The notes: generated by a model from the sequence alone, not told the origin. 64,000 nucleotides of DNA from an uncultured Gammaproteobacteria bacterium (GCA_963768295.1 CAVYHN010000009.1:262548-326547), one strand, 5' to 3'; numbered from the stretch's first letter, positions 1 to 56,355 are shown. Made by a program: numbers and translations.

Positions 1-658
1 TACGTACCACCTGGCTGATGACTTCGGCCACTTCACGCAGTACCTGGTCACCGACATCGTGGCCGTGGCCGTCATTAATTGCCTTGAAACCATCGAGATC
101 CATCACCAGTACCGCCATCGCCTGACTATGACGTTTCGCCAGGTCTATTTCGCGCGGCAGGTTCATTTCCATCGCCAGACGATTGTTCAATCCGGTCAAC
201 GGATCGCGGTAAGCCGACTTGAGCGCGATCTGATACATCAATGCATTCTTGATCGGGTAAATCAGCGAGCACAGCAAATCCTCGAGTTCGCAAAGCTCAA
301 GGCTGTTGAAACTGGAAAGTTTGAACAGGGTGAGTTCACCCAACATCCGGTTTTGAATCTTGAGTCGGTAGTTGGCGTTGAAGCCCTCGATCACGCCGTG
401 TTCTAAGGTGGCATTGATATCGCTACAGCTGAATCGATATCCACAGTAATTCACGTCATCCGCTATTTCGGCCATGAAGGCTTCGATTATCTGCGTAATG
501 TCCAGATGGCGTGATAACAGATCCGACAGCTGCAAAATGCGGAGATGCTTTTTATTCCCCTGTGTCTGCTCAGCCGAACGCGGGTCCAGTGCGATGACCT
601 GCGCCGGCACCTGCGGTACGGATTTATCGGTGTTAACCAGTTGTGTAGTTTGCGACAT
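1..658 (-). CDS. GGDEF-domain diguanylate cyclase, partial (start codon at 658; C-terminus beyond window edge)
   Basis: Reverse-strand translation from the ATG at 658..656 gives MSQTTQLVNTDKSV...DPLTGLNNRLAMEMNL...VLVMDLDGFKAINDGHGHDVGDQVLREVAEVIS, the classic GGDEF N-terminal half. It is absent from the ORF track because it runs off the edge. The + ORF 59..406 is its antisense shadow. Confidence 0.7.
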   Translation of the reverse strand, partial: MSQTTQLVNTDKSVPQVPAQVIALDPRSAEQTQGNKKHLRILQLSDLLSRHLDITQIIEAFMAEIADDVNYCGYRFSCSDINATLEHGVIEGFNANYRLKIQNRMLGELTLFKLSSFNSLELCELEDLLCSLIYPIKNALMYQIALKSAYRDPLTGLNNRLAMEMNLPREIDLAKRHSQAMAVLVMDLDGFKAINDGHGHDVGDQVLREVAEVISQVVR

Positions 659-835: not shown

Positions 836-863
836 TCAAGAAGTCGTCGCAATGGCCGAATAA
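836..863 (+). promoter_or_regulatory. sigma-28 (FliA)-type promoter candidate TCAAG-N14-GCCGAATAA
   Basis: TCAA at 836-839 and GCCGAATAA at 855-863 with 15-nt spacing, in the AT-rich intergenic region about 120 nt upstream of the fliK-like ORF. Resembles the Pseudomonas-type FliA consensus TCAAG-N..-GCCGATAA, with one extra A in the -10. Confidence 0.4.
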
Positions 864-985
864 TATTGCAGGTGACAGATTTTTAACGCTTGCGCCAACC
901 AATCTGCACCGGGATTAGGCATCCGGGGCAGCAGCCTGCCGCTTAAACGGCAGCTCCTTTCCCGGGGCGGACAATATTTGCCAAT

Positions 986-2986
986 ATGGACATCAAAATT
1001 CCCAGTGATTTGCCTGCGACGAAGCCGGTAGCTGCGCAAGTCGGCGACTTGTTGGCACAACTCAAGACGGCAGGCACGATCGAAGCCGAGGTCCTCAAGC
1101 TGTTGCCGGGCAACAAGCTGCTATTGTCCAGTCGTCTCGGCGATATTCTGACCAGTAACAGCCTGAACTACCGGGCAGGCGACCGGCTCACCCTGCGATT
1201 CGACGACAGCGCGCGGCAACCGGTGCTGAAGGTGAGTCCGCGCCCGAGCAAACCGCTGCTACTGGATAGCCGGCAGAATCCTGAACTGACCCGGGCATTG
1301 ACCTCTGACCGGCCGATGCTGGCAAGCGTTATCAGGATCGTCGCCCAACAGGCCGAAATTCGGCTGGCCGACCAGACTTTGAAACTGCCGCGCGCGGTTG
1401 CGCTGGTAAAAAACCAGTTACTGAGTCTGCAACGCAATGACGTCCGCCACAGCATCGAAATTACCCGGCTCGAACCTAAGGCGTTTTACAAGGCCATATT
1501 GAAGCAGCTGGTTCCGCAACAGGCTGAAACCAGGACTTCGAGCCTGGTCAGATTGCTTAATCTGATAGCGCCGAATGCAGTCGAGCCTCGACCCGCGCTG
1601 CCACGGAGGCTCGAAACCGGCCGCTCACAATGGCCGGCCAAACCGATACCAGCGCCTGCGGCGCGCGGCCAAACCGTTACCAGAGTGAATGCCGGCAATA
1701 GCTTCGAGCAGGCGCTTGCCATACGCGCTAGCGGCGGCCCGCAAACAGCGGTCACCAGTGCATCCGGCGCGCCCGGTAAAACCAGCGAATCCAGTTCCAC
1801 GCCCGGGCCAGGCTCCGCGGCTCGGCCGTTGTCGGCAATTAGCTCGGGGAACCCGCTGCCAGGTGCCCTGCAGCCTGCTCCTGCTAACAACAGGAGCGCT
1901 CCGCTGACGCATCCCGGAAACCCAGCTACGGGCAGCAGCCAAGCCCACAAAGGCGGCGCTACCAGGTCCGTGGCCTTGCAGCAGCCGGCTAATCCAGTGC
2001 GGCCTTCGGTGCCTGTCATGCAAGCCGGCGGAGCCGCGCCGAACACCCGCGGCAGCGATATCGAAACTACGGCTAGTCAAACGCGCAGCGGGCGCGCAAT
2101 CCCGGGCAACGAGTCTTACCGGCATGCGGCAGCAGCTGTCCAGGGAGCGCAAGCTGCCGCCGGGCAAGCGACTCCGCCTGGTCCAGCGCAAGCAACAGGT
2201 CTGTCGGGGCAGCCGGTGGGTGGGAACGCGTCACTCGCACCAGCGCTGCAGCCGCTGCTGCAGCTGGTCACCCGGTTTCCCGATATCGACGCCGCCCAGA
2301 TAAAGAAATGGCTCGAATTCGCACGCCTGATATACCCCTCCAAAGCGACAGTTTCGACCGCGCCGTCGCCCGATATTTTCAGGCTGTTGAAACAGTTCAG
2401 CGAGGGCGAAAGCTTGAGCCGCGATCTGACCCAGGCATTGCAGCAGAATTCCCGGGTTTCTGCAGACGCCGATTCGCCCACGACCAGGGCACAGGCCCAG
2501 GAAGCGTTGTTAATGCAAGCCAGGGAGGGCTTCAAACTAATCGAACAAAGCCTGACGCAAAACCTGCTACAGCGTGCGACCCTCGGACTGCAGCAGGAAA
2601 CGCAGCAGCCGCTCTCGTTCGGTTTTGCCTTGCCCTATGCAGATGCTCAGCACACAAAGTCGCTTTACATCGATCTTGCGGAGCGTAACCAGGCCCAGGA
2701 CGAGGCAGACAAAAGCTGGGATATCAGGCTCAGTTTCGAGCTGGCCGGCCTGGGTCCGATAACCTGTCACCTGGTGCTTGCCGGCTGTACCGTAGGCGCG
2801 AGCTTTTACTCGGAACAGGCGCAGACCCGCGAAAGCATCGAGATGGAATTGCCCCAGTTGAGACAACAATTGTCCCGCGCCGGGTTTACTCCCGGAGAGT
2901 TTCACAGCTTCCCGGGCAAGCCGGCGCCGAAGCAGGCGCCGACTGCTGCCGACTTTTCCGAAGCGCTGGTCGACATCGAGGTGTAA
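986..2986 (+). CDS. FliK-like protein: C-terminal flagellar hook-length-control (Flg_hook-type) domain, long Pro/Ala/Gly/Ser-rich low-complexity middle
   Basis: 666-aa ORF. The C-terminal ~120 aa (SWDIRLSFELAGLGPITCHLVLAGCTVGASFYSEQAQTRESIEMELPQLRQQLSRAGF) has the typical FliK C-terminal domain pattern. The N- and middle regions are low complexity. It is distinct from the bona fide fliK at 17823..19490. Confidence 0.7.
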   Translation: MDIKIPSDLPATKPVAAQVGDLLAQLKTAGTIEAEVLKLLPGNKLLLSSRLGDILTSNSLNYRAGDRLTLRFDDSARQPVLKVSPRPSKPLLLDSRQNPELTRALTSDRPMLASVIRIVAQQAEIRLADQTLKLPRAVALVKNQLLSLQRNDVRHSIEITRLEPKAFYKAILKQLVPQQAETRTSSLVRLLNLIAPNAVEPRPALPRRLETGRSQWPAKPIPAPAARGQTVTRVNAGNSFEQALAIRASGGPQTAVTSASGAPGKTSESSSTPGPGSAARPLSAISSGNPLPGALQPAPANNRSAPLTHPGNPATGSSQAHKGGATRSVALQQPANPVRPSVPVMQAGGAAPNTRGSDIETTASQTRSGRAIPGNESYRHAAAAVQGAQAAAGQATPPGPAQATGLSGQPVGGNASLAPALQPLLQLVTRFPDIDAAQIKKWLEFARLIYPSKATVSTAPSPDIFRLLKQFSEGESLSRDLTQALQQNSRVSADADSPTTRAQAQEALLMQAREGFKLIEQSLTQNLLQRATLGLQQETQQPLSFGFALPYADAQHTKSLYIDLAERNQAQDEADKSWDIRLSFELAGLGPITCHLVLAGCTVGASFYSEQAQTRESIEMELPQLRQQLSRAGFTPGEFHSFPGKPAPKQAPTAADFSEALVDIEV

Positions 2987-2988
2987 GC

Positions 2989-3324
2989 ATGAAAGGGCTG
3001 CCGAAATTCGCGATTGCGCTGGAGTACGACGGTAAACAGGCGCCGCAGGTTACCGCCAAGGGGCACGACGAGATCGCGAATCAAATTCTGAAACTGGCGC
3101 AGGAAGCCGATGTGCCGATTCACCTGGACAAGGATCTGGCGCTGGTGCTCGACCAGATCGATCTCGGCGAGCATATACCCGAAGCCCTTTATGTCGTCAT
3201 CGCCGAAATCCTGACTTTCGCCTACCGCCTTTCCGGCAAGCACAAGGACTTCATGGACGATATCAAACCGCGGGCGCAGCCGCGGCTTGAGCAATTGCCC
3301 GCGGACGAACTCGACTTCGACTGA
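2989..3324 (+). CDS. FlhB C-terminal-domain-like small protein (FlhX/YlqH-like type III export switch paralog)
   Basis: 111 aa. AIALEYDGKQAPQVTAKGHDEIANQILKLAQEADVPIHLDKDLALVL...IPEALYVVIAEILTFAYRL closely matches the FlhB cytoplasmic C-terminal fold (YlqH/FlhX family) but lacks an NPTH autocleavage motif. Starts 2 nt after the fliK-like stop. Confidence 0.75.
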   Translation: MKGLPKFAIALEYDGKQAPQVTAKGHDEIANQILKLAQEADVPIHLDKDLALVLDQIDLGEHIPEALYVVIAEILTFAYRLSGKHKDFMDDIKPRAQPRLEQLPADELDFD

Positions 3325-3490
3325 CCCCCGCCCCACGGTATGCGCTGACGCAGGCGCAATCCGTTACCGGTCGGCCGTGTACCGACATCGGCCTGGCAAA
3401 TTCGATATAATCTGAGCATCGCGAGACCTGCCGCGCGCCTCGAGCGCGCCCGCACAACAAACATGACCCCATCAGTAAAATGTTAATCTT

Positions 3491-4033
3491 TTGCAGCAAG
3501 GAACCCTGTCCGTGTTTTCAATAAAAGCCTGCCCGATTCCAGATCAGGCGCTGCTGCGAGAATATGTCCGCACCGATACCTATACCGATTGCTATCGCAC
3601 GCAAGCACAGCGCGAAGTAACCCTGAGCGAGTTTGTGCGCGCTTTTTACACCACCTGGATTTTCAAGCTGGAAAGAAGCATTCTGCAGTGGGCTCTGGCA
3701 AAACCTTCATCTGACGATCAGGCAAGCCGGCTAGCTGACGGCTCTATCGATCATTTTGCTGCATGGCAGGTGGAGCAACGAAGCAAAAATCAATTGCTGT
3801 TGACCGATTTTCAGGGTCGCACAAGATCCTGGTTTATGACTTTGCCCGCTAACGCTGGAAACAGCGCGCAGACAGTCCTGTACTTTGGTTCCGCGGTCAC
3901 GCCAGTGGCGGGTCCAGAAACCGGCGAAATGACGCCCGGCACGGGTTATAGCGCCCTGCTCGAATTTCATAAAATATACTCCAGGGTATTACTCTCCTCG
4001 GCAAGGTCAAGGCTCACGAGGCAACTCCGCTGA
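3491..4033 (+). CDS. hypothetical protein (TTG start in ORF track; possibly DUF2867-like)
   Basis: 180-aa ORF with reasonable codon usage and no recognisable catalytic motif. Confidence 0.35.
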   Translation: MQQGTLSVFSIKACPIPDQALLREYVRTDTYTDCYRTQAQREVTLSEFVRAFYTTWIFKLERSILQWALAKPSSDDQASRLADGSIDHFAAWQVEQRSKNQLLLTDFQGRTRSWFMTLPANAGNSAQTVLYFGSAVTPVAGPETGEMTPGTGYSALLEFHKIYSRVLLSSARSRLTRQLR

Positions 4034-4193
4034 AGCCGGGACAAGCGGGCGCGCTCCAGGATATGGAATCGTTGACGCCAGGCGATGCTTGACCAGCCAC
4101 TGCAGGCTAAGCATCGACTCGCCGCGAATCAGGTTTAACATCAACCCGGAGAATATGTGTTTATAATCAGGGCTTATATTTCGGGAGAATCAA

Positions 4194-4355
4194 GTGAAGA
4201 AAATTCTGTTCCTGTGCCTGCTATTGACCCAGCTGGTCGCCTGCTCTGCCGAAGTAGGCAGTGAGGCATGGTGTAAAGACCTGAAACAAAAGCCGAAGGG
4301 CGAATGGTCGGCAAACGAGGCGAAAGATTACGCCAAGCACTGCCTGTTCAATTAA
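4194..4355 (+). CDS. small putative lipoprotein (53 aa, GTG start)
   Basis: VKKILFLCLLLTQLVACSAEVGSEAWCKDLKQKPKGEWSANEAKDYAKHCLFN: signal peptide plus lipobox LVAC, DUF3012-like. Below the ORF-track size cutoff. Confidence 0.35.
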   Translation: MKKILFLCLLLTQLVACSAEVGSEAWCKDLKQKPKGEWSANEAKDYAKHCLFN

Positions 4356-4384
4356 GACGAATGCCGGGCCGCGGGATGATTAAC

Positions 4385-5314
4385 TTAACTGTCCGGGTCA
4401 GCGCCGAACAGGTTGAACAAATTAAACGAATTGCGGTAAGGCACCAGTTGGGGTGACTCCATTTTTTCCCTGACCCGGTCCAGATAGATATTCATGTAGT
4501 GGTTATTCAAGTTATCTTCATTCAACGCTTTCTGGGTAAAACTGGTCGCACGTAACATGCTGTCGGCGCCTTCCAGCACCGCGTACCGATTTTTATTCAG
4601 CAGGATAACTTCCTTGCCCGCATGCCAGTAAATGTCGATATTTTTGATATCCAGCGGATCGAACGGCGGTACCAGGGGCACCAGGTCGCCAGGCGTGACC
4701 ACGCGAATGACATTGAGGTGCTGAATTTTCATCGCGCCGGGAAAATTGGTGACCTTGGGCTGGCCAAAAGTGATGACCTGTTCGATATTGAAGCGATCGG
4801 CATCCAGGTACATCGCCAGTATCAGGGCAACCGCGCCGCCCAGGCTGTGGCCCGTGGCATAAATTTTATAATCCGCCTTAAACAGGGGCTTCAGCTCGGC
4901 ATATACCCGCTTTGCCGCGTATGCAAAGCCCTCGTGCAGGCGGGTCCCGGTTTTCTCATCGGTCATTAATTTAAGCGCTACGTCGAGCATTGCATTTTCG
5001 ACATTGGAAGTGCCGCGTACCGCTATCACCTGGGTTTTGCTCGAATCGTTGGTGGCAAGAAAAAACGACATTTGAATATCTGCAATCGTGTGATAAAGCC
5101 CGAGGCGGTAATTTTTTGACTCGACCAGATCGCGCACCCGATCTTCCGGCTGGTAGGCCGCAGCAGCAAACTCGGCCTGCTGCTGAATCACGGCAAAGTC
5201 AATCACGCCGCTCGCCGCAAGCGGCGGGCTCGCGCAAAAAAACAAAACAACCAGCGCGCTCAGGTGGCGGCTAAATTTTGCTAACTGGCGTATTCGTTTT
5301 GGCTGGCTGCGCAT
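4385..5314 (-). CDS. secreted class-3 lipase / alpha-beta hydrolase
   Basis: N-terminal signal sequence, GHSLGG nucleophile elbow, lipase_3-type organisation. Confidence 0.8.
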   Translation of the reverse strand: MRSQPKRIRQLAKFSRHLSALVVLFFCASPPLAASGVIDFAVIQQQAEFAAAAYQPEDRVRDLVESKNYRLGLYHTIADIQMSFFLATNDSSKTQVIAVRGTSNVENAMLDVALKLMTDEKTGTRLHEGFAYAAKRVYAELKPLFKADYKIYATGHSLGGAVALILAMYLDADRFNIEQVITFGQPKVTNFPGAMKIQHLNVIRVVTPGDLVPLVPPFDPLDIKNIDIYWHAGKEVILLNKNRYAVLEGADSMLRATSFTQKALNEDNLNNHYMNIYLDRVREKMESPQLVPYRNSFNLFNLFGADPDS

Positions 5315-5492
5315 CTGATCGGGCGGATCGTAACTGATTCGGGGCTAGATTATAGTTTTATACACAAGCCGCAAGTTCAGGATTTCACAAAAGGCGCAAT
5401 TGGCGGTGCATCAAGCCGATCGCACTGGCGTATATGTAAGCGATCGAAGCTGGCTTATACTTGCTAGCTAGCAGGATCTGCCGGGAGGCGAG

Positions 5493-5915
5493 ATGAGTGT
5501 AAAAGTTGAGGAACTGATGACGGCATCAGTCATTACGGCGCAGCCCCATCAAAGCGTCGAACACGTGCGCAACATGCTCGAGAAGAACTCGATCAGCGCC
5601 GTGCCGGTGGTCGATAGCGATGGTCACCCGATCGGGATCGTGTCGTCTACCGACCTGGCGCATGACGTAAAACCAGGCAAGCCAATCAGCCAGATCATGA
5701 CCAGGAAAGTATTTACAGTGCCCCAGTACGACGATACCAGTATCGCCGCGCGGGTGATGCGCAATCATGGCATCCACCGGGTTGTGGTTACCCACGAACA
5801 GAAAGTGGTTGGCATGTTGAGTGCTTTCGATCTGCTCAAACTCGTGGAAAGCCACCGCTACGTGGCCAAAAACGCGCCGACAAAGTCAAAACGCAAAGGC
5901 GCAAACCGCCGCTGA
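5493..5915 (+). CDS. CBS-pair domain protein
   Basis: Two CBS motifs (VITAQPHQSVEHVRNMLEKNSISAVPVVDSDGHPIGIVSSTDL ... RVMRNHGIHRVVVTHEQKVVGMLSAFDLLK). Confidence 0.8.
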   Translation: MSVKVEELMTASVITAQPHQSVEHVRNMLEKNSISAVPVVDSDGHPIGIVSSTDLAHDVKPGKPISQIMTRKVFTVPQYDDTSIAARVMRNHGIHRVVVTHEQKVVGMLSAFDLLKLVESHRYVAKNAPTKSKRKGANRR

Positions 5916-5925
5916 GGGATATGAC

Positions 5926-6081
5926 CTAGGCGTAGGTATCGATGATTCGTTTCGAATCTTTCTTTCTGCGCTCTTTCTTTTGCTGCCGAGACTTGTGCTG
6001 TTTATCCGGCTCGGGCTTCTTCAAGGCGTCGCGTACCCGCGGGGATTGATTTACCGATTTGATGAGTGGATCGTCAGCCAT
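5926..6081 (-). CDS. small highly basic hypothetical protein (51 aa)
   Basis: MADDPLIKSVNQSPRVRDALKKPEPDKQHKSRQQKKERRKKDSKRIIDTYA, convergent with the CBS gene. Only ORF evidence. Confidence 0.2.
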   Translation of the reverse strand: MADDPLIKSVNQSPRVRDALKKPEPDKQHKSRQQKKERRKKDSKRIIDTYA

Positions 6082-6488
6082 GGTTACGGTCTCTCGATTT
6101 CAGGTAGCGCGGCCTGAACCTGCATTCGCCTGATGCCGTATGCCTCGCCCTCCCGCGTGAAGGTGAAGTAGCGTATTTGATCCTGCAGGTCGTTTGCCAA
6201 TCGCCTGGCCATCATGACTCCTGATAATCCTGTACCTTCGCTCTATCGGCCGATTGCCCAAAAAGTTAACCCTGCATGCGATCAACGGGGCCGGCGACAG
6301 GCTTCAGGACTTACCCGGCGCCGCCACGCTCATGCAGCAGCTGAGTAATACGCGGTGGACTCAACCAGGTCGCCCGGGGGTTTGCGAGCAGGTTGTCGCC
6401 CGACGCTATCGCGGCGCTAACATCGGCCGAACGCTCCATCTACTGCTCCGCCAGGTAACGGCTTGCGCCAGTTATGCGGGCGCCGCTG

Positions 6489-6997: not shown

Positions 6998-7711
6998 TTA
7001 ACCCTGTTTGCTCCACTCCGACATACGCGACTTGATGCGCAGCAGGGCCTGGCCATGCAGCTGGCAAATGCGCGACTCGGTGACATCGAGAATTTCCCCG
7101 ATTTCGCGAAAGTTGAGTTCATCGTCGTAGTAAAGCGACATCACCAACTGTTCCTTCTCGGGTAGCTGGCGGATACTTTCAGCCAGCTGCCGCTGGTACT
7201 CGCCACTGCCAAAGGCTTCTTCCGGAGTTTGCTCGGACGAACTCGGAATCGCGGCATCCTGCGTGTTTTCTTCCATGGTTTCGATGCTGTAGATTCGCGA
7301 TGACGACGAATCGATCAGGATCTGGTGATACTCGCCGAGGCTGATACCGAGCGCCTGCGCGACGTCGGCATCGCGCGCGTCTTCACCGGTTTCATTTTCG
7401 ATCTGGCGAATCGCATCGGATACGGAACGAAACTTGCGGTGCACCGAGCGCGGAGTCCAGTCGGAACGACGAATCTCGTCGATCATCGAACCGCGAATAC
7501 GAATACCCGCGAAGGTTTCGAAACTGGCGCCCATTTCGGGGTTGAAATTACTGGCTGCCTCGAGCAGTCCGACCATCCCGGCCTGAATCAGGTCATCGAT
7601 TTGCACCGTCGGCGGCAATCGATTGAGCAAGTGATAGGCGATTCGTTTTACCAGCGAAGCATGCCGGATAATCTGGTCGTCTGCGCCCAGATTTTCGACT
7701 TCGGCATACAT
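6998..7711 (-). CDS. fliA: RNA polymerase sigma factor FliA (sigma-28)
   Basis: Sigma-70 regions 2, 3 and 4 (…DLIQAGMVGLLEAASNFNP…, …EKEQLVMSLYYDDELNFREIGEILDVTESRICQLH…). Start placed at the internal Met (MYAEV...) 11 nt after the flhG stop, not at the longer ORF-track start that overlaps flhG. Confidence 0.9.
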   Translation of the reverse strand: MYAEVENLGADDQIIRHASLVKRIAYHLLNRLPPTVQIDDLIQAGMVGLLEAASNFNPEMGASFETFAGIRIRGSMIDEIRRSDWTPRSVHRKFRSVSDAIRQIENETGEDARDADVAQALGISLGEYHQILIDSSSSRIYSIETMEENTQDAAIPSSSEQTPEEAFGSGEYQRQLAESIRQLPEKEQLVMSLYYDDELNFREIGEILDVTESRICQLHGQALLRIKSRMSEWSKQG

Positions 7712-7722
7712 CGCGTGCCCGT

Positions 7723-8583
7723 TCACAGGCGATCTTCCCGCGCGCTGAAATTCACCAGGCGCTCGATGAAGAACTCGAGATGTCCTTCTATGGAACTGGG
7801 GGACGGCCATTGCTGGGTCTTCTTCGCGATCTGCTTGAACGCGTTTGCTGACTGGCTGCGGGGAAAGGCCTCAACCACCGATTTCTGCTTTTGCACGGCT
7901 TTTTTCAGGCAATCGTCGTAGGGGATGCAGCCGAGATAATTGAGGGTAACGTCGAGGAAACGCTCCGACACCCGCGCCAGCTTGTTATACAGTTCGCGGC
8001 CCTGGGTCGCACCCTGCGCCTGGTTGGCCAGCACGTGAAATCGCTCGACGCCATAATCGCGATTCATGACTTTGACCATGGCGTAGGCATCGGTAATCGA
8101 CGCCGGTTCGTCGCAGACCACGACGATGACCTCGCGCGCGGCGCGCGTGTAGCTGACGACACTGTCGGACAAGCCGGCCGCGGTATCGATCAGCAGCGTG
8201 TCCACCGGTTCGGTCAGCTCGGAGAACGAGCGGATGATGCCCGCGTTTTGCGCCGGCGTCAGATCCGACATCGCCGCGACGCCCGAAGACGCCGGCACGA
8301 TCTTGATGCCGGCCGGACCTTCGATAATAGTTTCCTCGAGCGAACATTCGCCATTGATCACATGCGACAGGTTGAGCCCGGGGCTCAAGCCGAGTAATAC
8401 GTCGATGTTGGCGAGACCCATGTCCGCGTCCATGACCATGACTTTCTCGCCGGACTGTGCAAGCGTCACCGCGAGATTGATGGTGACGTTGCTTTTGCCG
8501 ACGCCGCCCTTACCGCTGGTCACCGCAATTACCCGCACCGGGTGTTGCGCTCTCATCTGTCTGATACCTTGGGCCTGATCCAT
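7723..8583 (-). CDS. flhG: flagellar number regulator FlhG/FleN (MinD-like ATPase)
   Basis: Deviant Walker A VTSGKGGVGKSN, MinD/ParA fold, position between flhF and fliA. Confidence 0.9.
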   Translation of the reverse strand: MDQAQGIRQMRAQHPVRVIAVTSGKGGVGKSNVTINLAVTLAQSGEKVMVMDADMGLANIDVLLGLSPGLNLSHVINGECSLEETIIEGPAGIKIVPASSGVAAMSDLTPAQNAGIIRSFSELTEPVDTLLIDTAAGLSDSVVSYTRAAREVIVVVCDEPASITDAYAMVKVMNRDYGVERFHVLANQAQGATQGRELYNKLARVSERFLDVTLNYLGCIPYDDCLKKAVQKQKSVVEAFPRSQSANAFKQIAKKTQQWPSPSSIEGHLEFFIERLVNFSAREDRL

Positions 8584-12199: not shown

Positions 12200-13330
12200 T
12201 CAGGCTTCTTCGTCGGTTGGCATATAGGGATCGGGGCGCTCTGGCATGTCACTGCCGTGTTGTCGTGCGAGGCGCAGCTGAAAAACGAAGGCAAGCACCT
12301 GGGCCACCGCAAAATAGAGATGAGACGGGATTTCCTGGTCGATCTTGCAGTTGGCGTAAAGCGCGCGCGCCAGCGGCGGTGCCTCGAAAATTTCGATTTC
12401 GTGGAATGCGGCAATTTCCCTGATCTTGAGTGCGATCAGATCCTTGCCCATTGCCAGTACCAGCGGCGCCGCCATGTTGTCGTGGTCATATTTCAGCGCC
12501 ACTGCGTAATGCGTCGGGTTGGTGATGATGACGTCGGCTTCGGGCACTGATTCCATCATGCGGCGCTGCGCCATTTCCTGCTGCACCTGGCGCACCCTGG
12601 ATTTGACTTCCGGCTTGCCCTCGGTGTCTTTCATTTCGTCGCGTACTTCCTGCAGCGTCATCTTCAACTTTTGCGAGTGATCCCACAGCTGGAACGGCAC
12701 GTCGATCGCGGCGATCAGAATCAGCGTCGAGGAAACTACCAGGAAGCTCTGGCCAATCAACCAGGCGCCGTTTTGCAACGCCAGCGCCAGCGACTGCGCA
12801 CCCAGGCCGAGAAAGTCGTCGGCCTTGCTCCATAAAAAAGTCACGGCAACCACCGACACCACCAGGAATTTGGCCACGGCCTTGATCAATTCCATCAATC
12901 CCTTGGAGGAAAACATGCGCTTGAAGCCGTTGATCGGATTGATGCGGTCGGTTTTGAACGCCATCGCGTCGACGCTGAAGGCCCAGCCGCCGATGGCCAG
13001 TGGCGTAAAAATTGCGACCACCGTCATCAGGACCATGAATGGGCCGATCGCAGCGAGCGCATCGTATATCGTGACAGTGAAGCGCTCTAACAGGGCCTGC
13101 GATGAAAAAACCTCGGCGCGCGAGAGCCTGAATCCCTGCGTCATGAAACCCGAAATATCGGCGATCATTTGCGCGCCCATGAAGAGCAAGCCGAGCGCGC
13201 CGAATACCATGACGGTCATGCTGTTGAGTTCCTTGGAGCGCGGCACCTGCCCCTTTTGCTTCGCGTCGCGAAGTTTTTTCGGGGTTGGTTGTTCGGTTTT
13301 TTCCTGACCCGAGTCGCTTTCGTTCGCCAT
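12200..13330 (-). CDS. flhB: flagellar export switch protein FlhB
   Basis: 376 aa, 4 TM helices plus cytoplasmic domain with an NPTH autocleavage motif (…ITNPTHYAVALKY…). Confidence 0.95.
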   Translation of the reverse strand: MANESDSGQEKTEQPTPKKLRDAKQKGQVPRSKELNSMTVMVFGALGLLFMGAQMIADISGFMTQGFRLSRAEVFSSQALLERFTVTIYDALAAIGPFMVLMTVVAIFTPLAIGGWAFSVDAMAFKTDRINPINGFKRMFSSKGLMELIKAVAKFLVVSVVAVTFLWSKADDFLGLGAQSLALALQNGAWLIGQSFLVVSSTLILIAAIDVPFQLWDHSQKLKMTLQEVRDEMKDTEGKPEVKSRVRQVQQEMAQRRMMESVPEADVIITNPTHYAVALKYDHDNMAAPLVLAMGKDLIALKIREIAAFHEIEIFEAPPLARALYANCKIDQEIPSHLYFAVAQVLAFVFQLRLARQHGSDMPERPDPYMPTDEEA

Positions 13331-17822: not shown

Positions 17823-19490
17823 TCAGGCGAAGGTATCTAGCAGACCGTCGCCAGTGAAATAGTTTGCCGGATGCTGCTGTGCCCGGGCCTTGTCCTGTTC
17901 CGGGTTCAATTCTTCACCGTTAGCAGAAGTTTCGTCAGAAGCGGTTTGCGAGCGGGACTGCTGCTGATCCTGGCGCTGTGACACATCGACATTCACGTTT
18001 TGATAACCACTTTCCTGCAGTAAATCACGCAGGCGCACCGAGGCGGATTCGATCAGGTCGCGGGTTTGCGCATGCTGCGTCTGAATCGTAATCGTGGTCG
18101 CGTCATCGGCGATTTTTATTTGCACATCGAGTTTGCCGAGCATCGGCGGATCGAGCCGAATGGTTGCGCTATTCTGCTTCTGGTTGATCATCCAGTTGAC
18201 CCGTTCACCCAGGCCATTGCTCAATTCGCCGGCGTCCGAGGTGCGCGTCAGATTCATGGTTTCAAGCTGAGCCGGCAATGCATTCTGGTTTACCGGCGGC
18301 GCCGTCACCGCGGCGCTAATCGCGTGGCTGTGTCCGCTCACAGACGAGGCTGTTAGCGACTGCTGCGTCTGGCTGCTCGAAATTTGTTGCGCCAGTTCCA
18401 GGTTACGGTTAGCGCCAAGCTCCGGACCGGCGGCTTCGGAATGGGTTTTTACCGCTTGCGCCGGCAGCCTGAAAGTCTCAGCCAGGTCGCTGTAATCTAC
18501 GTTTTCCACGCCGGCGGTCACTATTCCGGTTTGCCTGAGCGGGATCGGAACCGCAGCGTCCAGGCCGCGCGGCAATGGCAGGTCGCGCAGCAATGGCAAC
18601 TCCTTGCTGACGGATTCACGAACTGGATTTGCGCTGACCGCCAGCCCGTCTGGCCGGGTATCGGTCAAGCTTACGGGGTTCGGCATCCGCTCGCCGGCTC
18701 CATCCGCCCGGGTTATCGTGGCCCGGGTCTCGAACGCGGGTATTTTCAGCCTGGCGTCAGGCTCGCTGCGGGTGGCGTTTTCTGCAGCTAAAGTTGCGTT
18801 GAGCGACGCCTGGACATCAGGTGAAGGCTGACCGCCGGCAAGTCGTGCCGAGCTCGACTCGGCAACGATCGATTGTATTCCGTTGCCAGTTAAACTGGCC
18901 GCTGCTGTGGCAACGCTACCACCGCTATCGGTGGCGACTGCGGGCGTCGGTGCTGGCGCAAGCGGATTAACCAGGGCTTCGGCAGCGACCGACGCGGGGT
19001 TGATCGCGGCGCTGGCGGAACCTGGCCGGAGTGCTGCCGGCATGATTTCAGCGCGCGGCATTGCGAGCCCGCCGATCGCTGCATCGGGCAATAAATTTCC
19101 GCCGACAGGCAATGGTTCGCCGGTCCCGATCGGTATTTGAGCGCCTGCCACAGCAAACGCTCGTGGCTGATCCAGCAGGGACGTATCAATATCGACCGGG
19201 GTTAGCGCAACCGGATCGGCATCTGTCGAAATATGGATTTGCTGCTGTGACAGGAAGTCCTGCCAGGCCGCGGCCGCCGGGCCGACAGGGTTCAACTCCG
19301 AAGTCTGGGCCGCGCTCGAAAAATTTTCAAAAAACTCTTTAAATTCAATAATTTGATCGGCATTCTCGGGATCAGCAGGGAGTTGTTGCCGAGGTAAACC
19401 GGTAAAGCCGTCACCGCCTCCCGGCGCGACCACGGGCATATCCTGCATCTCCAGGGTCAGGGAGCGTATCTCGGTAAGCATTATGTTCAT
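17823..19490 (-). CDS. fliK: flagellar hook-length control protein FliK
   Basis: 555 aa, low-complexity N-terminal and middle regions, conserved C-terminal Flg_hook domain (…TIRLDPPMLGKLDVQIKIADDATTITIQTQHAQTRDLIESASVRLRDLLQESGYQNVNV…). Position between fliJ and fliL. Confidence 0.85.
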   Translation of the reverse strand: MNIMLTEIRSLTLEMQDMPVVAPGGGDGFTGLPRQQLPADPENADQIIEFKEFFENFSSAAQTSELNPVGPAAAAWQDFLSQQQIHISTDADPVALTPVDIDTSLLDQPRAFAVAGAQIPIGTGEPLPVGGNLLPDAAIGGLAMPRAEIMPAALRPGSASAAINPASVAAEALVNPLAPAPTPAVATDSGGSVATAAASLTGNGIQSIVAESSSARLAGGQPSPDVQASLNATLAAENATRSEPDARLKIPAFETRATITRADGAGERMPNPVSLTDTRPDGLAVSANPVRESVSKELPLLRDLPLPRGLDAAVPIPLRQTGIVTAGVENVDYSDLAETFRLPAQAVKTHSEAAGPELGANRNLELAQQISSSQTQQSLTASSVSGHSHAISAAVTAPPVNQNALPAQLETMNLTRTSDAGELSNGLGERVNWMINQKQNSATIRLDPPMLGKLDVQIKIADDATTITIQTQHAQTRDLIESASVRLRDLLQESGYQNVNVDVSQRQDQQQSRSQTASDETSANGEELNPEQDKARAQQHPANYFTGDGLLDTFA

Positions 19491-48485: not shown

Positions 48486-48642
48486 TTAACGCTAGACCAG
48501 CCCCTCTTTACTGCAGGCTTACCCCCTTGCTGACATCCTGTCGCAGTGTCAGATGTTCGCTATAGCGTCCCATCAAATGCCAATGGGGTATCTAGTCAGT
48601 GGCAAGCGCACAAGCTCAGGTCAATCCAGATGCAGGTATCTG

Positions 48643-50535
48643 TTACCCGAAGTTCAATATTAATCGAACCTGCGTTCCTGTCAGGGATCCGTTTATTTCA
48701 AGCTTTGCTCCAAGTTGCCCTGCGCGGTAGTGCATGTTCTTTATGCCCCGCCCTGCACTATTGCCGCCGGTGCTATTCTGCAAACCCCGGCCATAGTCGA
48801 TGATGTCAATATAAATCTGTGAATGTTCTGTTGCCAGCACCCCCGTCGTTAAGGTCAATTTCGCGGACCCAGAATGTTTGGCGCTATTGTTAATCGCCTC
48901 CTGCAGGATGCGCATGATGTGCAAACACTCGCCAGGCCCAATTGCCTCGCATTCGGGAAGATCAGTCACCGCCCACTCAAGTTCCATATTCGCCGAGCTA
49001 AGCTGCTCGGTAAATCGCATCCTCATCATTCCCAACAAGGTCGGCAAATCGCTGAGTACCGGGTCGAGCGAATCAATGACCAGACGCAAATCGGTTAAAC
49101 TGTGCTGCACCTTGTCACGAACGTTTCCAAAAACCTCTCCGCTTTTATCCTGCAACTGCGCGACGATGGATACCAGTTGCCCGCCGATACCATCATGCAT
49201 GTCACGCATGATTCGCTCACGCTCCTCTGCAAGCAGCCGTTTTTGCTCCGATATCCGCAGTTCCTGGTACTGGTTCTCCAGAGTCATCTGCTTTTCCCTT
49301 ACCCGTTGCTCGAGCACGGCAGTCATTTCTTCGGCCTGATTTATCGAACGCACGAAACGTCTGATCATGAACCAGCTGAATAACATGATTGATGGGATAA
49401 CACTGTACTGGACGATCAGTCCGTCAAGGCGGTCGATTAAATTATTCAGCAGCAAATAGTCATGCAGGCCTGAGACCAGGATGGGCATGCCGACTAAAAG
49501 CATCAGAAAAGCATCCTGAGCCGTTTTGTGATTTTTCTCTTCGCGGTAGTAAACAAATAGCAGATGCGAAATAGCGTAAATACCCAGCAGGCAAATACCG
49601 GTATCAAGAATGTGATAACCGACGTAATGGACGCTACTGACATCCGGAAGAAAAAGTAAACCGATGCTGGCGAGCGCGAAATACAGAATGATCTTTTCTA
49701 TTTTTTTATTCGCATAACCTACATAGCTGTGATTGAAGAAAATCATGGTCACGATCGTCCACACAAACGAAACCAGAATAACGGCCTCCCACAGACGAGT
49801 AGACACCGGCACGCCGGTGACAAACAGGTTTAGGTTATGCGTAGCCCAGAGAAACAGTTCCAGAGAAAACAAGGCGTAGACAATATCCTTGCGCCTGGCC
49901 AGCCAGAAGGCAAAAACGATCATCGACATGAAATACATCGCGGCGGTAATCCACTGAATAAATTCAAAACGGACCAGCCGCTTCCAGTCATAGGCAGGCT
50001 GTAGCTTTTTTGCCGGGCCGAAATAAAAACGATCGAGTAGACCCTGCTTGCCGACGGTGGTCTGCATTCGAATGTGAATACGGTTTTCACCCGAACGTAA
50101 CAGGTTTGACGAAAAGTTGATCATTAGTGGCTGATTGTGATGCCGCGACAAGGGCTCATCAAAACTGCCACCCTGGCCCACCCAGAGGCCATTGACATAC
50201 ACCGCGGCATTGTGAAAAACCATGGGCAAGTACACGGCCCATGCCGCCTCGGATCTGTCTTCAACGACAATTGTGGCCCGATACCAGGCACGATCCACCT
50301 GGGAATCTCGTTTCGCCCAGTCATCGGGTAACGACGCGGGCTGCCAATCCCCGGTTGGTAATTGAGCGGGTTCAGACAAATCGCTTGCGAGGTATTCGAG
50401 TTTTTCGATAGCCGGCAACTGTGGTTCGAAAAAAATACTGAATGGGGTATGAAAAACGACGACATTTAACAATGCCAGATAGATAAACAGAATCGAAAAC
50501 GCTGTGATTTTATGCCGGGTAAACCATGAAAACAT
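48643..50535 (-). CDS. 7TM-receptor-type sensor histidine kinase (periplasmic 7TMR-DISM-like sensor + 7 TM + HisKA_3 + HATPase), copy 1
   Basis: 630 aa: N-terminal extracellular domain, 7 TM helices, H-box RIMRDMHDGIGGQL (NarX/DegS-type), ATPase G-boxes. Confidence 0.85.
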   Translation of the reverse strand: MFSWFTRHKITAFSILFIYLALLNVVVFHTPFSIFFEPQLPAIEKLEYLASDLSEPAQLPTGDWQPASLPDDWAKRDSQVDRAWYRATIVVEDRSEAAWAVYLPMVFHNAAVYVNGLWVGQGGSFDEPLSRHHNQPLMINFSSNLLRSGENRIHIRMQTTVGKQGLLDRFYFGPAKKLQPAYDWKRLVRFEFIQWITAAMYFMSMIVFAFWLARRKDIVYALFSLELFLWATHNLNLFVTGVPVSTRLWEAVILVSFVWTIVTMIFFNHSYVGYANKKIEKIILYFALASIGLLFLPDVSSVHYVGYHILDTGICLLGIYAISHLLFVYYREEKNHKTAQDAFLMLLVGMPILVSGLHDYLLLNNLIDRLDGLIVQYSVIPSIMLFSWFMIRRFVRSINQAEEMTAVLEQRVREKQMTLENQYQELRISEQKRLLAEERERIMRDMHDGIGGQLVSIVAQLQDKSGEVFGNVRDKVQHSLTDLRLVIDSLDPVLSDLPTLLGMMRMRFTEQLSSANMELEWAVTDLPECEAIGPGECLHIMRILQEAINNSAKHSGSAKLTLTTGVLATEHSQIYIDIIDYGRGLQNSTGGNSAGRGIKNMHYRAGQLGAKLEINGSLTGTQVRLILNFG

Positions 50536-50600
50536 AACTGTCCGCCCGCTTCTTTGGAGCTAGTGCATATAGCTCACAAGAGAAATATCCGCTGATACCG

Positions 50601-51245
50601 CTAAGGTAAGAGCCCCTGTTGAATCGCCTGGTAAATAGCTTCTGATCGGCTGTTAACCTGCAGCTTATTATATATATTTTTGATATGCGTGGTGACGGTG
50701 TAATACGTGATGCCCAGTTTCTCGGAAACCTCTTGCGCCGAGAAACCCTGGCTCAACAGTTTCAGAATCTTTGTTTGCCTTGGGGTTAAGGCTTCGGGCA
50801 AAGGAATCGTCTGGGTTTGCACATTATGAAACTTCAACAGCATCAGCCGCGCAATAACCGGGCTCATCGGGGCACCGCCATCGATCATGGCGAGAATGGC
50901 ATCGGTGATTTTCTGACTCTTATCGTGTTTTAGAATATAGGCTTTGGCACCCGCTTCCAGTGCCTTGAACACCAGGTTTTCATCCTGAAAACCGGAAATC
51001 ACCATCGCGTCGCAATCCAGGTGCTGTTGCTCGATGGCCCTGATAATGTCGATACCGGAACCATCCGGCAAGCCGAGATCGGTGAGCAACACATCCGGTT
51101 TATGTTGAGATAAGGCCGACAAACCCTGCTCCATCGTGCCGCAGGCATCGAGCAGCTCGAACTGCTCGTGCTCCGCAATCAGGCTTGATAAACGACCCCG
51201 TACATCGGCATCATCCTCGACCAGCGTCACGGTATATTTATGCAT
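50601..51245 (-). CDS. NarL/FixJ (LuxR)-family response regulator, copy 1
   Basis: 214 aa, receiver (…DVLLTDLGLPDGSG…) plus C-terminal LuxR HTH (…ALTPRQTKILKLLSQGFSAQEVSEKLGITYYTVTTHIKNIYNKLQVNSRSEA…). Confidence 0.9.
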   Translation of the reverse strand: MHKYTVTLVEDDADVRGRLSSLIAEHEQFELLDACGTMEQGLSALSQHKPDVLLTDLGLPDGSGIDIIRAIEQQHLDCDAMVISGFQDENLVFKALEAGAKAYILKHDKSQKITDAILAMIDGGAPMSPVIARLMLLKFHNVQTQTIPLPEALTPRQTKILKLLSQGFSAQEVSEKLGITYYTVTTHIKNIYNKLQVNSRSEAIYQAIQQGLLP

Positions 51246-51347
51246 TGTTCATTAATCCGGAAAACATGCCTGTTATTGTAATGGCTGGCAGCGGCGTATC
51301 ACATTCACCCAGGGCATTGAGGGACAGATCGGAACCGAGATCCGCAG

Positions 51348-52221
51348 CTAGTAAATATACACCGAGCCGGCAAAGGAAGCGCTGTTATCCGACTGATCGC
51401 CACCGATACCGGTGGTCACACTATCCTCATCAGTGGCCCCCACTGCCAGGGTGCCGCCGTCTCCAGATAAGGCCAGGTTTAGACCGAACTCATCATTATC
51501 CTCGGTATTTGAAGCCTTGACGTAACCGATAGCCTCGACCAGATTAGCCGATAAGACCAACTCCGCAGAGGCGCATACCATCAACTTGACCAGAATGTTC
51601 CTTTGCAATCAGTTGATTATTATGCTCGATATCCTGATTGTATTGTAAACTAAAGTAATTATTTTCTATTCGACCTTCTTGCAATTCACCGCGACAAGAA
51701 TTCTTAAGACAAAAATTCACGACTTTCCAATTATATTTCGTCTTACATTGTCGACATTCTTGTTGAGGACCATTAACCGATTTTTTAACAACTAAAATAT
51801 CCGGATGCAACAACAATGCTTCTTGATTTCGATGCATATAATTTTCTATATAACCCATTTCGGTTAAAAAGGCAACAGCTTCATTCAAGTATGCTTCTTG
51901 GTTTTGAATATCATCACCGAAACATCTTCGGGTCCAGGTAGTCAAAGTTCGAGAAGTTCTTAATGCGAATGTATTAAAACGGTCCCCAAGCAATCTTCTT
52001 TGCTGCGGTTCAGCATTTGAAAAACATCCGGGTTTTGTTCCTTCAACAGCTTCAAATATTCTTTTGTCCGGAAGTATTTGACTTATTGGAACTATTACTT
52101 GTTGACCAAATGTTTCTCTATCAAGTAAGTTAGGATGGTTAAAGGCATTCTCTCTTCGGAATATATCCATTATCCCCTTGAGGTAATCATGCGCCAGATC
52201 AGGATTTTCAGCCGAAAGCAA
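51348..52221 (-). pseudogene. low-GC gene X copy 1: Cys-rich N-domain plus C-terminal FG-GAP-like repeat, split by a 2-nt indel
   Basis: ORF 51544..52221 (…CRQCKTKYNWKVVNFCLKNSC…NNQLIAKEHSGQVDG) and ORF 51348..51608 (…CASAELVLSANLVEAIGYVKASN…FG…LALSGDGGTLAVGATDEDS…VYIY) are contiguous in the right-arm copy but out of frame here (GGTATGCGCC versus GGTTGTTGCGCC). GC content drops to about 35-40%. Confidence 0.45.
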
Positions 52222-52416: not shown

Positions 52417-53118
52417 TTGAAGCTGTTGAAGGAACAAAAGTTCAGGGGTGTTTTTCAAACGCTGAACCGCAGCAAAGAAGAATTGCTTGGGTGCCGTTTT
52501 AATCCTTTCGCATTAAGAATTTCTCGAACTTTGAATACCTGGACTCGAAGATGTTTTGGTGATGATATTCAAAACCAAGCATACTTGAATGAAGCTGTTC
52601 CTTTTTAACCGAAATGGGTTATATAGAAAATTATATGAGTCGAAAGCATTGTTGTTGCATCCGGATATTTTAGTTGTTAGGAATTCGGTAATAGGTCCTC
52701 AACAAGAATGTCGACGATGTAAGACGAAATATAATTGGAAAGTCAGTGAATTTTTGTCTTAAGAATTCTTGTCGCGGTGAATTGCAGAAGGTCGAATAGA
52801 AATAATTACTTTAGTTTACAATATCAATCAGGATATCGACGTAATAATCAACTGATTGCAAAGGAACATTCTGGTCAAGTTGATGGTTGTTGCGCCTCTG
52901 CGGAGTTGGTCTTATCGGCTAATCTGGTCGAGGCTATCGGTTACTTCAAGGCGTCGAATGCTGAAGCAAGTGATGAGTTCGGCACGACCCTGGCCTTATC
53001 CGCTGATGGCAGCACCATGACAGTGGGGACTGTTGATGAGGATAGTGCCTCGACCGGGATCGGTGGCGATCAGCCGGATAACAGCGCTACCTCTGCAGGT
53101 GCGGTGTATATTTACTAG
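52417..53118 (+). pseudogene. low-GC gene X copy 2: N-domain degraded by multiple frameshifts and stops, FG-GAP tail intact
   Basis: ORF fragments 52417..52608 (…FALRISRTLNTWTRRCFGDDIQNQAYLNEAV…) and 52777..53118 (…NNQLIAKEHSGQVDGCCASAELVLSANLVEAIGYFKASN…AVYIY) match copy 1. Intervening frames are broken but still show similarity (LLLHPDILVV…GPQQECRRCKTKYNWKV). Confidence 0.4.
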
Positions 53119-53219
53119 CTGTGGATCTCAGCTCAGACCCGTTTGCCAATGCCTGGCCGAATGTGAAATATTGGTGTCAGCCATTACAATAACAGGCATG
53201 TTTTCCGGATTAATGAACA

Positions 53220-53864
53220 ATGCATAAATATACCGTTACGCTGGTTGAGGATGATGCCGATGTACGGGGTCGTTTATCAAGCCTGATTGCGGAGCACGAG
53301 CAGTTTGAGCTGCTCGATGCCTGCGGCACGATGGAGCAGGGTTTATCGGCCTTATCGCAACATAAACCCGATGTGTTGCTCACCGACCTCGGCTTGCCGG
53401 ATGGTTCCGGTATCGACATTATCAGGGCCATTGAGCAACAACATCTGGATTGCGACGCGATGGTGATTTCCGGTTTTCAGGATGAAAACCTGGTGTTCAA
53501 GGCACTGGAAGCGGGGGCCAAAGCCTATATTCTAAAACACGACAAGAGCCAGAAAATCACCGACGCCATTCTCGCCATGATCGATGGCGGTGCTCCGATG
53601 AGCCCGGTTATCGCGCGACTGATGCTGTTGAAGTTTCATAATGTGCAAACCCAGACGATTCCCTTGCCCGAAGCCTTGACCCCGAGGCAAACCAGGATTC
53701 TGAAACTGTTGAGCCAGGGTTTCTCGGCGCAGGAGGTTTCCGAGAAACTGGGTATCACTTATTACACTGTCACCACGCATATTAAAAATATATATAATAA
53801 GCTGCAGGTTAACAGCCGATCAGAAGCTATTTACGAGGCGATTCAACAAGGGCTCTTACCTTAA
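53220..53864 (+). CDS. NarL/FixJ (LuxR)-family response regulator, copy 2
   Basis: 214 aa, differs from copy 1 at 2 residues (K to R, Q to E). Confidence 0.9.
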   Translation: MHKYTVTLVEDDADVRGRLSSLIAEHEQFELLDACGTMEQGLSALSQHKPDVLLTDLGLPDGSGIDIIRAIEQQHLDCDAMVISGFQDENLVFKALEAGAKAYILKHDKSQKITDAILAMIDGGAPMSPVIARLMLLKFHNVQTQTIPLPEALTPRQTRILKLLSQGFSAQEVSEKLGITYYTVTTHIKNIYNKLQVNSRSEAIYEAIQQGLLP

Positions 53865-53928
53865 CGGGTCAGCGAAAATTTTTCTTGTAAGCTATATGTA
53901 GTAGCTGCAGAGGGAGTGGCAGACATAT

Positions 53929-55821: not shown

Positions 55822-56355
55822 TTGATACCTGCATCTGGATTGACCTGAGCCTGAAAGTATCTTCACTCAGAGTAAAGCATTCGGATTCAACAGGCCATCA
55901 TCCGTGAACCGCTATACGCAGCCGGACATGGCGCCGTGGTCGGTGAACTTAACCAGGTGACCAATAGGGCGGTGCGGGCAAAACAGGGGTCGAGGTCATT
56001 CTCGATTATTTGGGATCCTCCGCCGGCGCTGAAAAAAAACTTCAAGCCCATACAATCGCACAAATAGAAAACCCCAGGGGACTTGTCGCGGGGAAAATCC
56101 GGGCGGCTCATTCCTGGTTGCGAGAATAGGGCAGAAATCGAATTAGTCGGACAGGCTATTTATAACAAAGATCTTTGACAGGGAGCAATCGAGCAGATAG
56201 CAAATCCAGAAACAGGGTTTCTTCGTACGGAGTTTTGCGGGGATTGGTTGTGCATTGTTATGCTTCGTGGTGCAAAGCCTGGAATCGCGCGCCACATAAG
56301 CTCATGAAAAATAGAGAAGTATAAGTTGGTTTGTAATCTGAAAATCCCCGTGTCG

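Follow-up and report, generated by a model that had tools for sequence, protein, structure and literature searches.

A very probable late-class fliK2-flhX operon, extra to the canonical fliK and flhB genes, on the margin of a polar flagellar cluster in an uncultured gammaproteobacterium

The stretch of DNA analysed here, 64,000 nucleotides (nt) from an uncultured Gammaproteobacteria bacterium (GCA_963768295.1, CAVYHN010000009.1:262548-326547) and referred to below as the window, very probably carries a late-class fliK2-flhX flagellar operon that is extra to canonical fliK and flhB genes and lies at the edge of a polar flagellar cluster of the Pseudomonas/Vibrio type. That fliK2 and flhX form a translationally coupled pair behind a FliA (sigma-28)-type promoter is well supported, and the pair belongs to a kind already named, the fliK2-flhX pair of Pseudomonas putida, and is not a new system. 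Our analysis establishes the gene structure, the domain identities, the coupling, the conservation of the promoter motif and the synteny at the cluster edge, and in every structural feature examined the locus agrees with the Pseudomonas-type operon and with the FlhX and FliK/T3S4 families, the TIGR00789 score excepted. The features on which this description rests are as follows.

986..2986, plus strand: fliK2, a FliK-like open reading frame (ORF) of 666 amino acids (aa), from the ORF call and the Pfam Flg_hook match
2989..3324, plus strand: flhX, an ORF of 111 aa, homologue of the cleaved C-terminal FlhB subdomain (FlhB_CC or FlhB_CCD)
836..863, plus strand: sigma-28 (FliA)-type promoter motif, -35 element TCAAG at 836-840, N14, -10 element GCCGAATAA at 855-863
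870..985, plus strand: 5' untranslated leader of fliK2, approximately 115-125 nt, from an alignment of 12 leaders
17823..19490, minus strand: canonical fliK, 555 aa, Flg_hook 6.7e-23, ending ...GDGLLDTFA
12200..13330, minus strand: canonical full-length flhB, Bac_export_2 positions 1-335 of 335, E 9e-130, with NPTH in the alignment

The two ORFs are separated by a gap of 2 nt (junction GAG GTG TAA GC ATG) and the Shine-Dalgarno sequence of flhX, GAGG, is embedded in the final codons of fliK2. A preliminary description of this DNA, made without database searches, had proposed an extra, tightly coupled pair with a 2-nt gap at these positions and separate from a bona fide fliK and flhB; the ORF call confirms the pair and the profile matches confirm the canonical genes; a Flg_hook match and an FlhB C-terminal match were both obtained and the pair is not the only fliK and flhB present. 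Database labels for the two proteins are 'flagellar biosynthesis protein' for FlhX and 'hypothetical protein' for FliK2, and the same pair is present on a JGI metagenome contig.

FlhX matches Bac_export_2 at profile positions 261-334 of 335 only, corresponding to the last ~75 residues of FlhB (E 5.6e-18, 65.7 bits against a gathering score of 24.4), and its best NCBIfam model is TIGR00789 (flhB_rel, 'FlhB-like flagellar biosynthesis protein'; E 1.2e-20, positions 4-81 of 84). The earlier assignment of an FlhB C-domain to the 111-aa protein is therefore borne out by both profile collections. Alignment of the window FlhB segment ...EADVIITNPTHYAVALKYD... with the start of FlhX, MKGLPKFAIALEYD, places the beginning of FlhX immediately after NPTH, and the protein lacks the transmembrane domain, linker and beta1 strand of FlhB as well as NPTH itself, the last of these absences having been noticed beforehand. 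Sequence matches in the PDB point to the same fragment: 12du_A is hit over FlhB residues 289-370, and in FlhB 3b0z and EscU 3bzy the hit is to chain B, which is the portion generated by cleavage. No hydrophobic segment is present (maximum 19-residue Kyte-Doolittle mean of 1.32 vs 2.25 in the window FlhB) and the protein is acidic with 12 K/R vs 21 D/E residues. Judged by these sequence properties, FlhX corresponds in soluble and free-standing form to FlhB_CC, which FlhB yields by autocleavage at NPTH.

The FlhX/YlqH family includes Helicobacter pylori HP1575, Campylobacter jejuni Cj0848c and Bacillus subtilis YlqH, and with these proteins the window FlhX shares a length of ~100 aa, homology only to the post-NPTH part of FlhB and TIGR00789 as best NCBIfam model; its 111 aa fall within the ~85-130 aa expected of the family. 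Unlike in H. pylori and C. jejuni, where flhX is not adjacent to fliK, the gene is here and in most of the surveyed loci coupled to a FliK-like gene. Close homologues number 356, those listed being 92-132 aa long with Bac_export_2 as their only domain. When 1.84 billion cluster representatives were searched with the FlhX profile, 6518 matched at E<=1e-3, full-length FlhB included, and the best 150 of these (50%-identity representatives) were nearly all stand-alone proteins of ~50-170 aa; the one long hit, P0222, considered as a possible fusion, proved to be an FlhB-fragment artefact. Among 14 sequences of 67-89% identity 48 columns are invariant, and at the loci examined the FlhX match starts right after the NPTH position.

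The single Pfam match of FliK2 is Flg_hook (PF02120), which covers aa 567-640 with E 6e-14 and 52.1 bits (gathering score 29.8), in line with the FliK C-terminal domain reported for the 666-aa protein in the preliminary description; there is no NCBIfam match, and Flg_hook is likewise the only domain in its 61 homologues. The same description had called this domain the sole recognisable part of the protein, which holds as far as family profiles are concerned and does not hold for conservation, there being a second conserved region of ~175 aa at the N-terminus. In an alignment of 32 homologues the conserved parts are the N-terminal aa 1-195 and the C-terminal ~250 aa, separated by a poorly conserved spacer at ~aa 196-415 that is 70% P/A/S/T/G/Q. 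Even with the threshold relaxed to E<=10, neither Pfam nor NCBIfam gave a match for the N-terminal ~200 aa (segments of 196-205 aa tested). AlphaFold2 (AF2) models together with Foldseek and the conservation map divide the protein, all on the plus strand, as listed.

aa 1-18: disordered N-terminus (AF2 model)
aa 19-175: helix and two beta-barrel domains (AF2 models, Foldseek)
~aa 196-415: disordered P/A/S/T/G/Q-rich spacer (AF2 model, composition)
aa 418-532: helical region (AF2 model)
aa 544-643, nt 2615-2914: T3S4 (Flg_hook) domain (AF2, Foldseek, Pfam)
nt 2963-2983: terminal motif ...ALVDIEV (conservation map)

The beta/alpha domain at aa 544-643 was modelled with a predicted local distance difference test score (pLDDT) of 74-83 and matches in Foldseek the PscP SS domain (5cuk, probability 1.0, root mean square deviation 2.1 Å over 68 columns) and Salmonella FliK_C (2rrl, probability 0.99), with E-values of only 0.07-0.1 because the full-length model was used as query. 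FliK2 in this way has the predicted T3S4 alpha/beta fold, in which it matches Pseudomonas PscP (5cuk), one of the injectisome T3S4 proteins that act on YscU/HrcU C-domains, a further example being Xanthomonas HpaC with HrcU_C; unlike in these virulence systems, where the C-domain normally arises from cleavage of the full-length protein, the C-domain is here a separate gene. In the full-length model the two N-terminal beta domains (aa 31-94 and 110-162) have a pLDDT of 70-83, and aa 172-436 and the tail are disordered. Modelled separately the N-terminal region has a pLDDT of 71 and resembles tandem OB-type barrels (Mpa inter-domain, S1 repeats, IF1) at E 4e-4 to 2e-2 with low template modelling scores; no flagellar structure was among the Foldseek matches of this model, and the assignment of an OB-like fold is tentative. 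Conservation across loci extends to the terminal motif, L[ILV]D[ILV][EK][VA], which is similar to the window FliK tail LLDTFA, and in more distant loci the partner gene ends ...LLDVRT* or ...LLDLEA*. The possibility that the FliK2 tail and FlhX together represent a split FlhB C-domain arising by gene fission was discarded, as the canonical FliK, which does not adjoin FlhB, has the same type of tail.

With regard to expression, the TCAAG-N14-GCCGAATAA element has no other intergenic match on its strand in the window. A sigma-28 motif precedes the FliK-like gene in 14 of 53 related loci, these being the related loci with a full-length upstream gene, where shuffled sequences gave an expectation of 0.6. 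The form TCAAGAA-N11-GGCCGA[AT] occurs in 11 of the 12 closest full-length loci, where the spacer differs in sequence and the -10 element ends 125-126 nt before the ATG. This recurrence at fliK2 is well beyond chance. The flagellin gene of the window is preceded by a classical TAAAGTTT-N11-GTCGTTAA and a TAAAG...GACGATAA motif lies upstream of a probable fliS, and sigma-28 promoters in this genome therefore appear to follow the usual consensus. FliA control of fliK2-flhX in this genome, which the preliminary description had suggested from the motif, is supported by the conservation of motif and position and by experiments on the P. putida PfliK2 promoter (bioRxiv 10.1101/2021.08.29.457346).

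The leader between promoter and start codon is also conserved. In 12 genomes its length is constant, with 125-126 nt separating the -10 element from the ATG, and the last ~40 nt, a block at 947-990, are almost invariant in the 12 leaders (CGGCAGCU..UACCCGGGGYGGAMAA..AUUGCCA..AUGGA). RNAalifold predicts an invariant GGCAG/UUGCC stem at 949-953/978-982 and, upstream of it, a hairpin in which 4 pairs are compensatory, and the 3' block holds two GGA motifs of which one overlaps the start codon. A comparison with Rfam gave no family match. The arrangement is possibly a site of translational control of the CsrA/RsmA type.

Scanning one genome per species gave 80 loci from uncultured Gammaproteobacteria, Aquisalimonas, Ectothiorhodospiraceae, Methylophaga, Bosea and two Clostridia metagenome-assembled genomes (MAGs), the nearest named relative being the Olavius algarvensis Gamma 3 endosymbiont (83%); three of the hits were true FlhB, and the 77 FlhX loci (L001-L077) include the metagenome contig. 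In ~70 of the 77 flhX is preceded by an ORF that has a FliK2-type C-domain and either stops 2-4 nt short of flhX or overlaps it, typically by ATGA and otherwise by 14 nt, and coupling of a FliK-like gene to flhX is near-universal across the sampled loci. The length of the FliK-like partner varies from ~390 to 1036 aa between lineages. 

Upstream of fliK2 a divergent GGDEF (diguanylate cyclase) gene was found in 39 of 81 loci (L001-L081), at 2..658 on the minus strand in the window, which suggests a stable link of the pair with an enzyme of cyclic di-GMP metabolism. The pair is usually placed at the margin of the flagellar cluster; downstream and convergent with it is a cheY-fliA-fleN-flhF-flhA string, with CheY seen in 34 and FliA in 27 of the loci that extend far enough, and between flhX and this string are variable inserts. 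In the window the insert at 3325..5915 consists of four non-flagellar genes (a 180-aa ORF without family match, a DUF3012 lipoprotein-like ORF, a class-3 lipase and a CBS-pair protein) that were found in only a few close relatives, which agrees with the report for Pseudomonas of a hot-spot for insertions where flhX adjoins flrD. Several loci outside the Gammaproteobacteria and in other contexts also show FlhX coupled to a FliK-like or FliK-tail-bearing upstream gene, namely a Thiotrichaceae MAG (L058), the Clostridia MAGs (L073 and L076) and Bosea (L075 and L077); the L058 pair is divergent from fliLMNOP and may be the only fliK there. These cases hint at an ancient linkage of FliK and FlhX rather than a 'second copy' phenomenon.

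The closest described counterpart is that of P. putida KT2440, in which PP_4328, with a FliK C-terminal domain, was named fliK2 and PP_4329 flhX, the two being co-transcribed by RNA-seq (bioRxiv 10.1101/2021.08.29.457346). According to the same study PfliK2 is FliA-dependent in vivo and is activated 4- to 33-fold by ectopic FliA, and the pair marks the boundary of the cluster, across from the flhA...flrD operon, the flhX-flrD junction being prone to take up extra genes. The window has in common with P. putida a FliK-C gene followed by a small FlhB-C homologue, a promoter motif of the FliA type and the presence of both genes in addition to canonical fliK and flhB; as far as the described layout allows comparison it also shares the position at the outer edge of a polar cluster, convergent with the flhA-flhF-fleN-fliA-cheY operon, and the inserts after flhX. 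Unlike P. putida, the window is without cheZAB-motCD-parCP between cheY and the pair, its cheW appears reduced to a 43-aa remnant, a 51-aa ORF takes the place of flrD, and the host is an uncultured marine-type gammaproteobacterium. Linkage of flhX to fliK has also been noted in Nitratiruptor (PMC9321776). Where 'fliK2' turns up in Vibrio papers, it belongs to lateral flagella or is a reference-number artefact.

For the function of the two domains the most informative comparison is with the switch of Salmonella, where a 2026 study in mBio describes FlhB's cleaved C-terminal domain (FlhB_CCD) as an inhibitory lock that holds the apparatus in early mode until the T3S4 domain and last five residues of FliK eject it on completion of the hook, an event that coincides with sigma-28 activation (PMC13344023). 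In that model the switch needs removal of FlhB_CCD and is treated as irreversible; FlhX is unmentioned in the paper. Common to this switch (PMC13344023; PMC6972891) and the present pair are a T3S4 domain with a short conserved tail and a cleaved FlhB subdomain. Unlike in Salmonella the two modules appear here as separate soluble proteins behind a sigma-28-type promoter. FlhX differs from Salmonella FlhB in being without membrane anchor, FlhB_CN and NPTH, and FliK2 from Salmonella FliK in having a predicted folded region in place of the canonical ruler N-terminus. Since the cleaved FlhB domain of Salmonella is an inhibitory lock ejected by FliK (PMC13344023), the FlhX protein, presented in the preliminary description as the switch half of a ruler-plus-switch module, would be better described as a free lock subdomain. 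Two further lines of evidence concern such domains supplied in trans: the C-terminal cleavage product of HrcU functions in trans and binds its T3S4 partner (PMC3040844), and H. pylori FlhX (HP1575) is said in a passage of the P. putida paper that cites Pallen 2005, Wand 2006 and Smith 2009 to replace FlhB_CC partially (bioRxiv 10.1101/2021.08.29.457346) and is termed in a passage citing Wand 2006 a 'spare part' for FlhB_CC (PMC3040844). Association with an FlhB that lacks its CC domain, together with support of export, is known from the literature only for HP1575.

A further candidate component lies outside the pair on the side of the convergent string, and its surroundings in the window are as follows.

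5926..6081, minus strand: orf51, 51 aa, basic and K/R-rich (MADDPLIKSV...KRIIDTYA), a candidate associated part
6084..6215, minus strand: candidate cheW remnant, an ORF of 43 aa (..YFTFTREGEAYGI..) resembling the CheW N-terminus by eye
6998..7810, minus strand: fliA (sigma-28) with Sigma70 r2/r3/r4 domains, member of the convergent string flhA-flhF-fleN-fliA-cheY

orf51 is present in 25 related loci, where it lies between flhX and cheW/cheY/fliA, and its C-terminus, IIDTYA, is invariant and nearly equals the end of the window FliK, GLLDTFA, a region reported to be essential for the flip of the export switch. The 85 database homologues are all unnamed or 'hypothetical', and no Pfam or NCBIfam match was obtained. 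Among 895 six-frame segments of the window (>=40 aa) the FliK-type terminal motif is found only in FliK, orf51 and FliK2, and from this resemblance orf51 may be a small protein that binds FlhB_CC or FlhX. In several loci orf51 comes directly after cheW. The 43-aa ORF next to it in the window has no Pfam or NCBIfam match and looks like a deletion remnant of cheW, given that the gene immediately preceding orf51 in related loci has at its end what reads by eye as a CheW-like C-terminus. A sigma-28-like motif, TTAAC-N14-GCCGATAG (6243..6269, minus strand), lies just upstream of the 43-aa ORF, and 5 further loci have it upstream of orf51.

From these observations we put forward as a tentative proposal that FliK2 and FlhX bind one another and act on the export gate after the switch. 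Since the established partners are the T3S4 domain of FliK with its last residues and FlhB_CC, the two proteins most likely bind each other as cognate partners and are produced in equal amounts. As sigma-28 becomes active at hook completion, FlhX would be made after the native lock has left and would appear only once FliK has ejected it. FlhX may then serve as a spare lock that could take up the place left empty on FlhB, given that in H. pylori FlhX can make up for a deleted FlhB_CC, and FliK2 would hold, deliver or remove FlhX. Together the two proteins would tune or reset the specificity of the export gate past the hook-to-filament switch.

A number of observations weigh against this reading or limit it. 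The score of FlhX against TIGR00789, 73.4 bits, is below the curated cutoff of 117.35, from which we take it to be a divergent subfamily, and BLASTP of FliK2 against the window FliK detects no similarity, which makes FliK2 an old paralogue and not a recent copy and rules out a recent duplication of FliK as its origin; with FlhX below the cutoff and FliK2 without similarity to FliK, equivalence to the characterised FlhX and FliK is extrapolated. The overall pLDDT of the full-length FliK2 model is 50, a low confidence. The tail of FliK2, LVDIEV, differs from LLDTFA of the window FliK and its codons overlap the ribosome-binding site of flhX, and the conservation of the last codons may be partly due to that embedded site. 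No natural fusion of FliK2 and FlhX was found among the 61 FliK2 homologues, the 356 FlhX homologues and the best 150 FlhX-profile representatives. Upstream of more distant homologous pairs the sigma-28 motif was not detected, relaxed patterns included, and late timing may therefore not be universal. Finally, our literature search found no functional study of the pair and no report of interaction, localisation, secretion or phenotype for any organism, and the P. putida study calls the function of fliK2-flhX 'still uncharacterized' (bioRxiv 10.1101/2021.08.29.457346), in agreement with the statement in the preliminary description that such pairs are annotated and have no defined function.

One other explanation keeps the late timing and does away with direct action at the gate. 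FlhX would mop up leftover cytoplasmic FliK and FliK2 would mop up ejected FlhB_CC, making the switch irreversible and shielding newly assembling basal bodies from premature switching. The late, sigma-28-type timing suits such a role, each protein carries a domain that binds the canonical partner of the other, and the 2026 model needs removal of FlhB_CCD and an irreversible switch (PMC13344023). We nevertheless regard it as unlikely, as it has no need for the conserved N-terminal domain of FliK2 or for the 220-aa spacer, and the strict 1:1 coupling suggests mutual binding and not the binding of third parties. Somewhat less likely still in our view is that FliK2 is secreted as a late substrate and may serve as ruler or sensor for a post-hook structure, with FlhX solely as its dedicated cytoplasmic chaperone or escort, devoid of a role of its own at FlhB. 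The genes are arranged as is typical of type III secretion chaperone-substrate pairs, with a small, acidic and soluble protein encoded directly downstream under translational coupling, and the disordered N-terminal 18 aa and long unfolded spacer of FliK2, together with the variation of its length from lineage to lineage, recall secreted rulers of the FliK family. Against this FlhX is homologous to FlhB_CC and to no known chaperone fold, H. pylori FlhX, in the passages cited above, functionally replaces FlhB_CC at the apparatus, and the N-terminal part of FliK2 is predicted to be folded, unlike the N-terminus of canonical FliK.

We also considered an extension of the proposal to a sigma-28-timed circuit for re-locking the export gate with a logic like that of FlgM and sigma-28, which as a whole we hold to be improbable. 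FlhX would re-lock FlhB, FliK2 would hold FlhX through its T3S4 domain and terminal strand-like residues, and export of FliK2 would make export activity set the level of free FlhX available for re-locking gates, while orf51 with its IIDTYA end would compete for the same site on FlhB_CC or FlhX. The FliK2 tail A-L-V-D-I-E-V has an alternating pattern like that of the FlhB beta1 strand A-D-V-I-I-T-N, the strand absent from FlhX. The pair could also be a functionless relic of a duplicated or second flagellar system, made up of a truncated flhB pseudogene and a degenerate fliK. The divergence of FliK2 from FliK past recognition by BLASTP would fit a relic, as would the merely partial replacement described for H. 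pylori flhX in the passages referred to. The conservation data largely refute it: FlhX is strongly conserved (the 48 invariant columns among 14 sequences), the best 150 profile representatives are nearly all stand-alone, at the examined loci the FlhX match sets in directly after NPTH, and pair, spacing, promoter and neighbours are conserved over dozens of genomes, with no second flagellar gene set nearby. Decay is accordingly an extremely improbable account of the locus.

Elsewhere in the window fliA, fleN, flhF and flhA occur in the Pseudomonas/Vibrio order, flagellin, fliD and flgK lie farther along, and no second flagellar gene set was found nearby in the window. Apart from the flagellar genes there is an inverted duplication at 48611-51821 and 52644-55853 with arms of ~3.2 kb that are 83-95% complementary and have their inner ends ~0.8 kb apart, each arm encoding a 630-aa protein without Pfam match and a LuxR-type response regulator.

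To our knowledge FlhX-type proteins have stood among the listed flagellar proteins since 2005 without a defined role, and they are widespread as indicated by the 6518 profile matches (E<=1e-3, full-length FlhB included). The existence of the locus will not surprise a specialist and its value is as a test of the lock-ejection model of 2026, for which a separately encoded copy of the lock, late-timed and with a FliK-like partner of its own, is a sharp test case. To the existing descriptions our survey adds the near-universal coupling of FliK-like genes and flhX in the sampled loci, the conserved terminal motif of FliK2 and a linked unannotated protein with the terminal residues of FliK. If FlhX can re-occupy the gate, the switch would not be strictly irreversible in the many bacteria carrying the pair.

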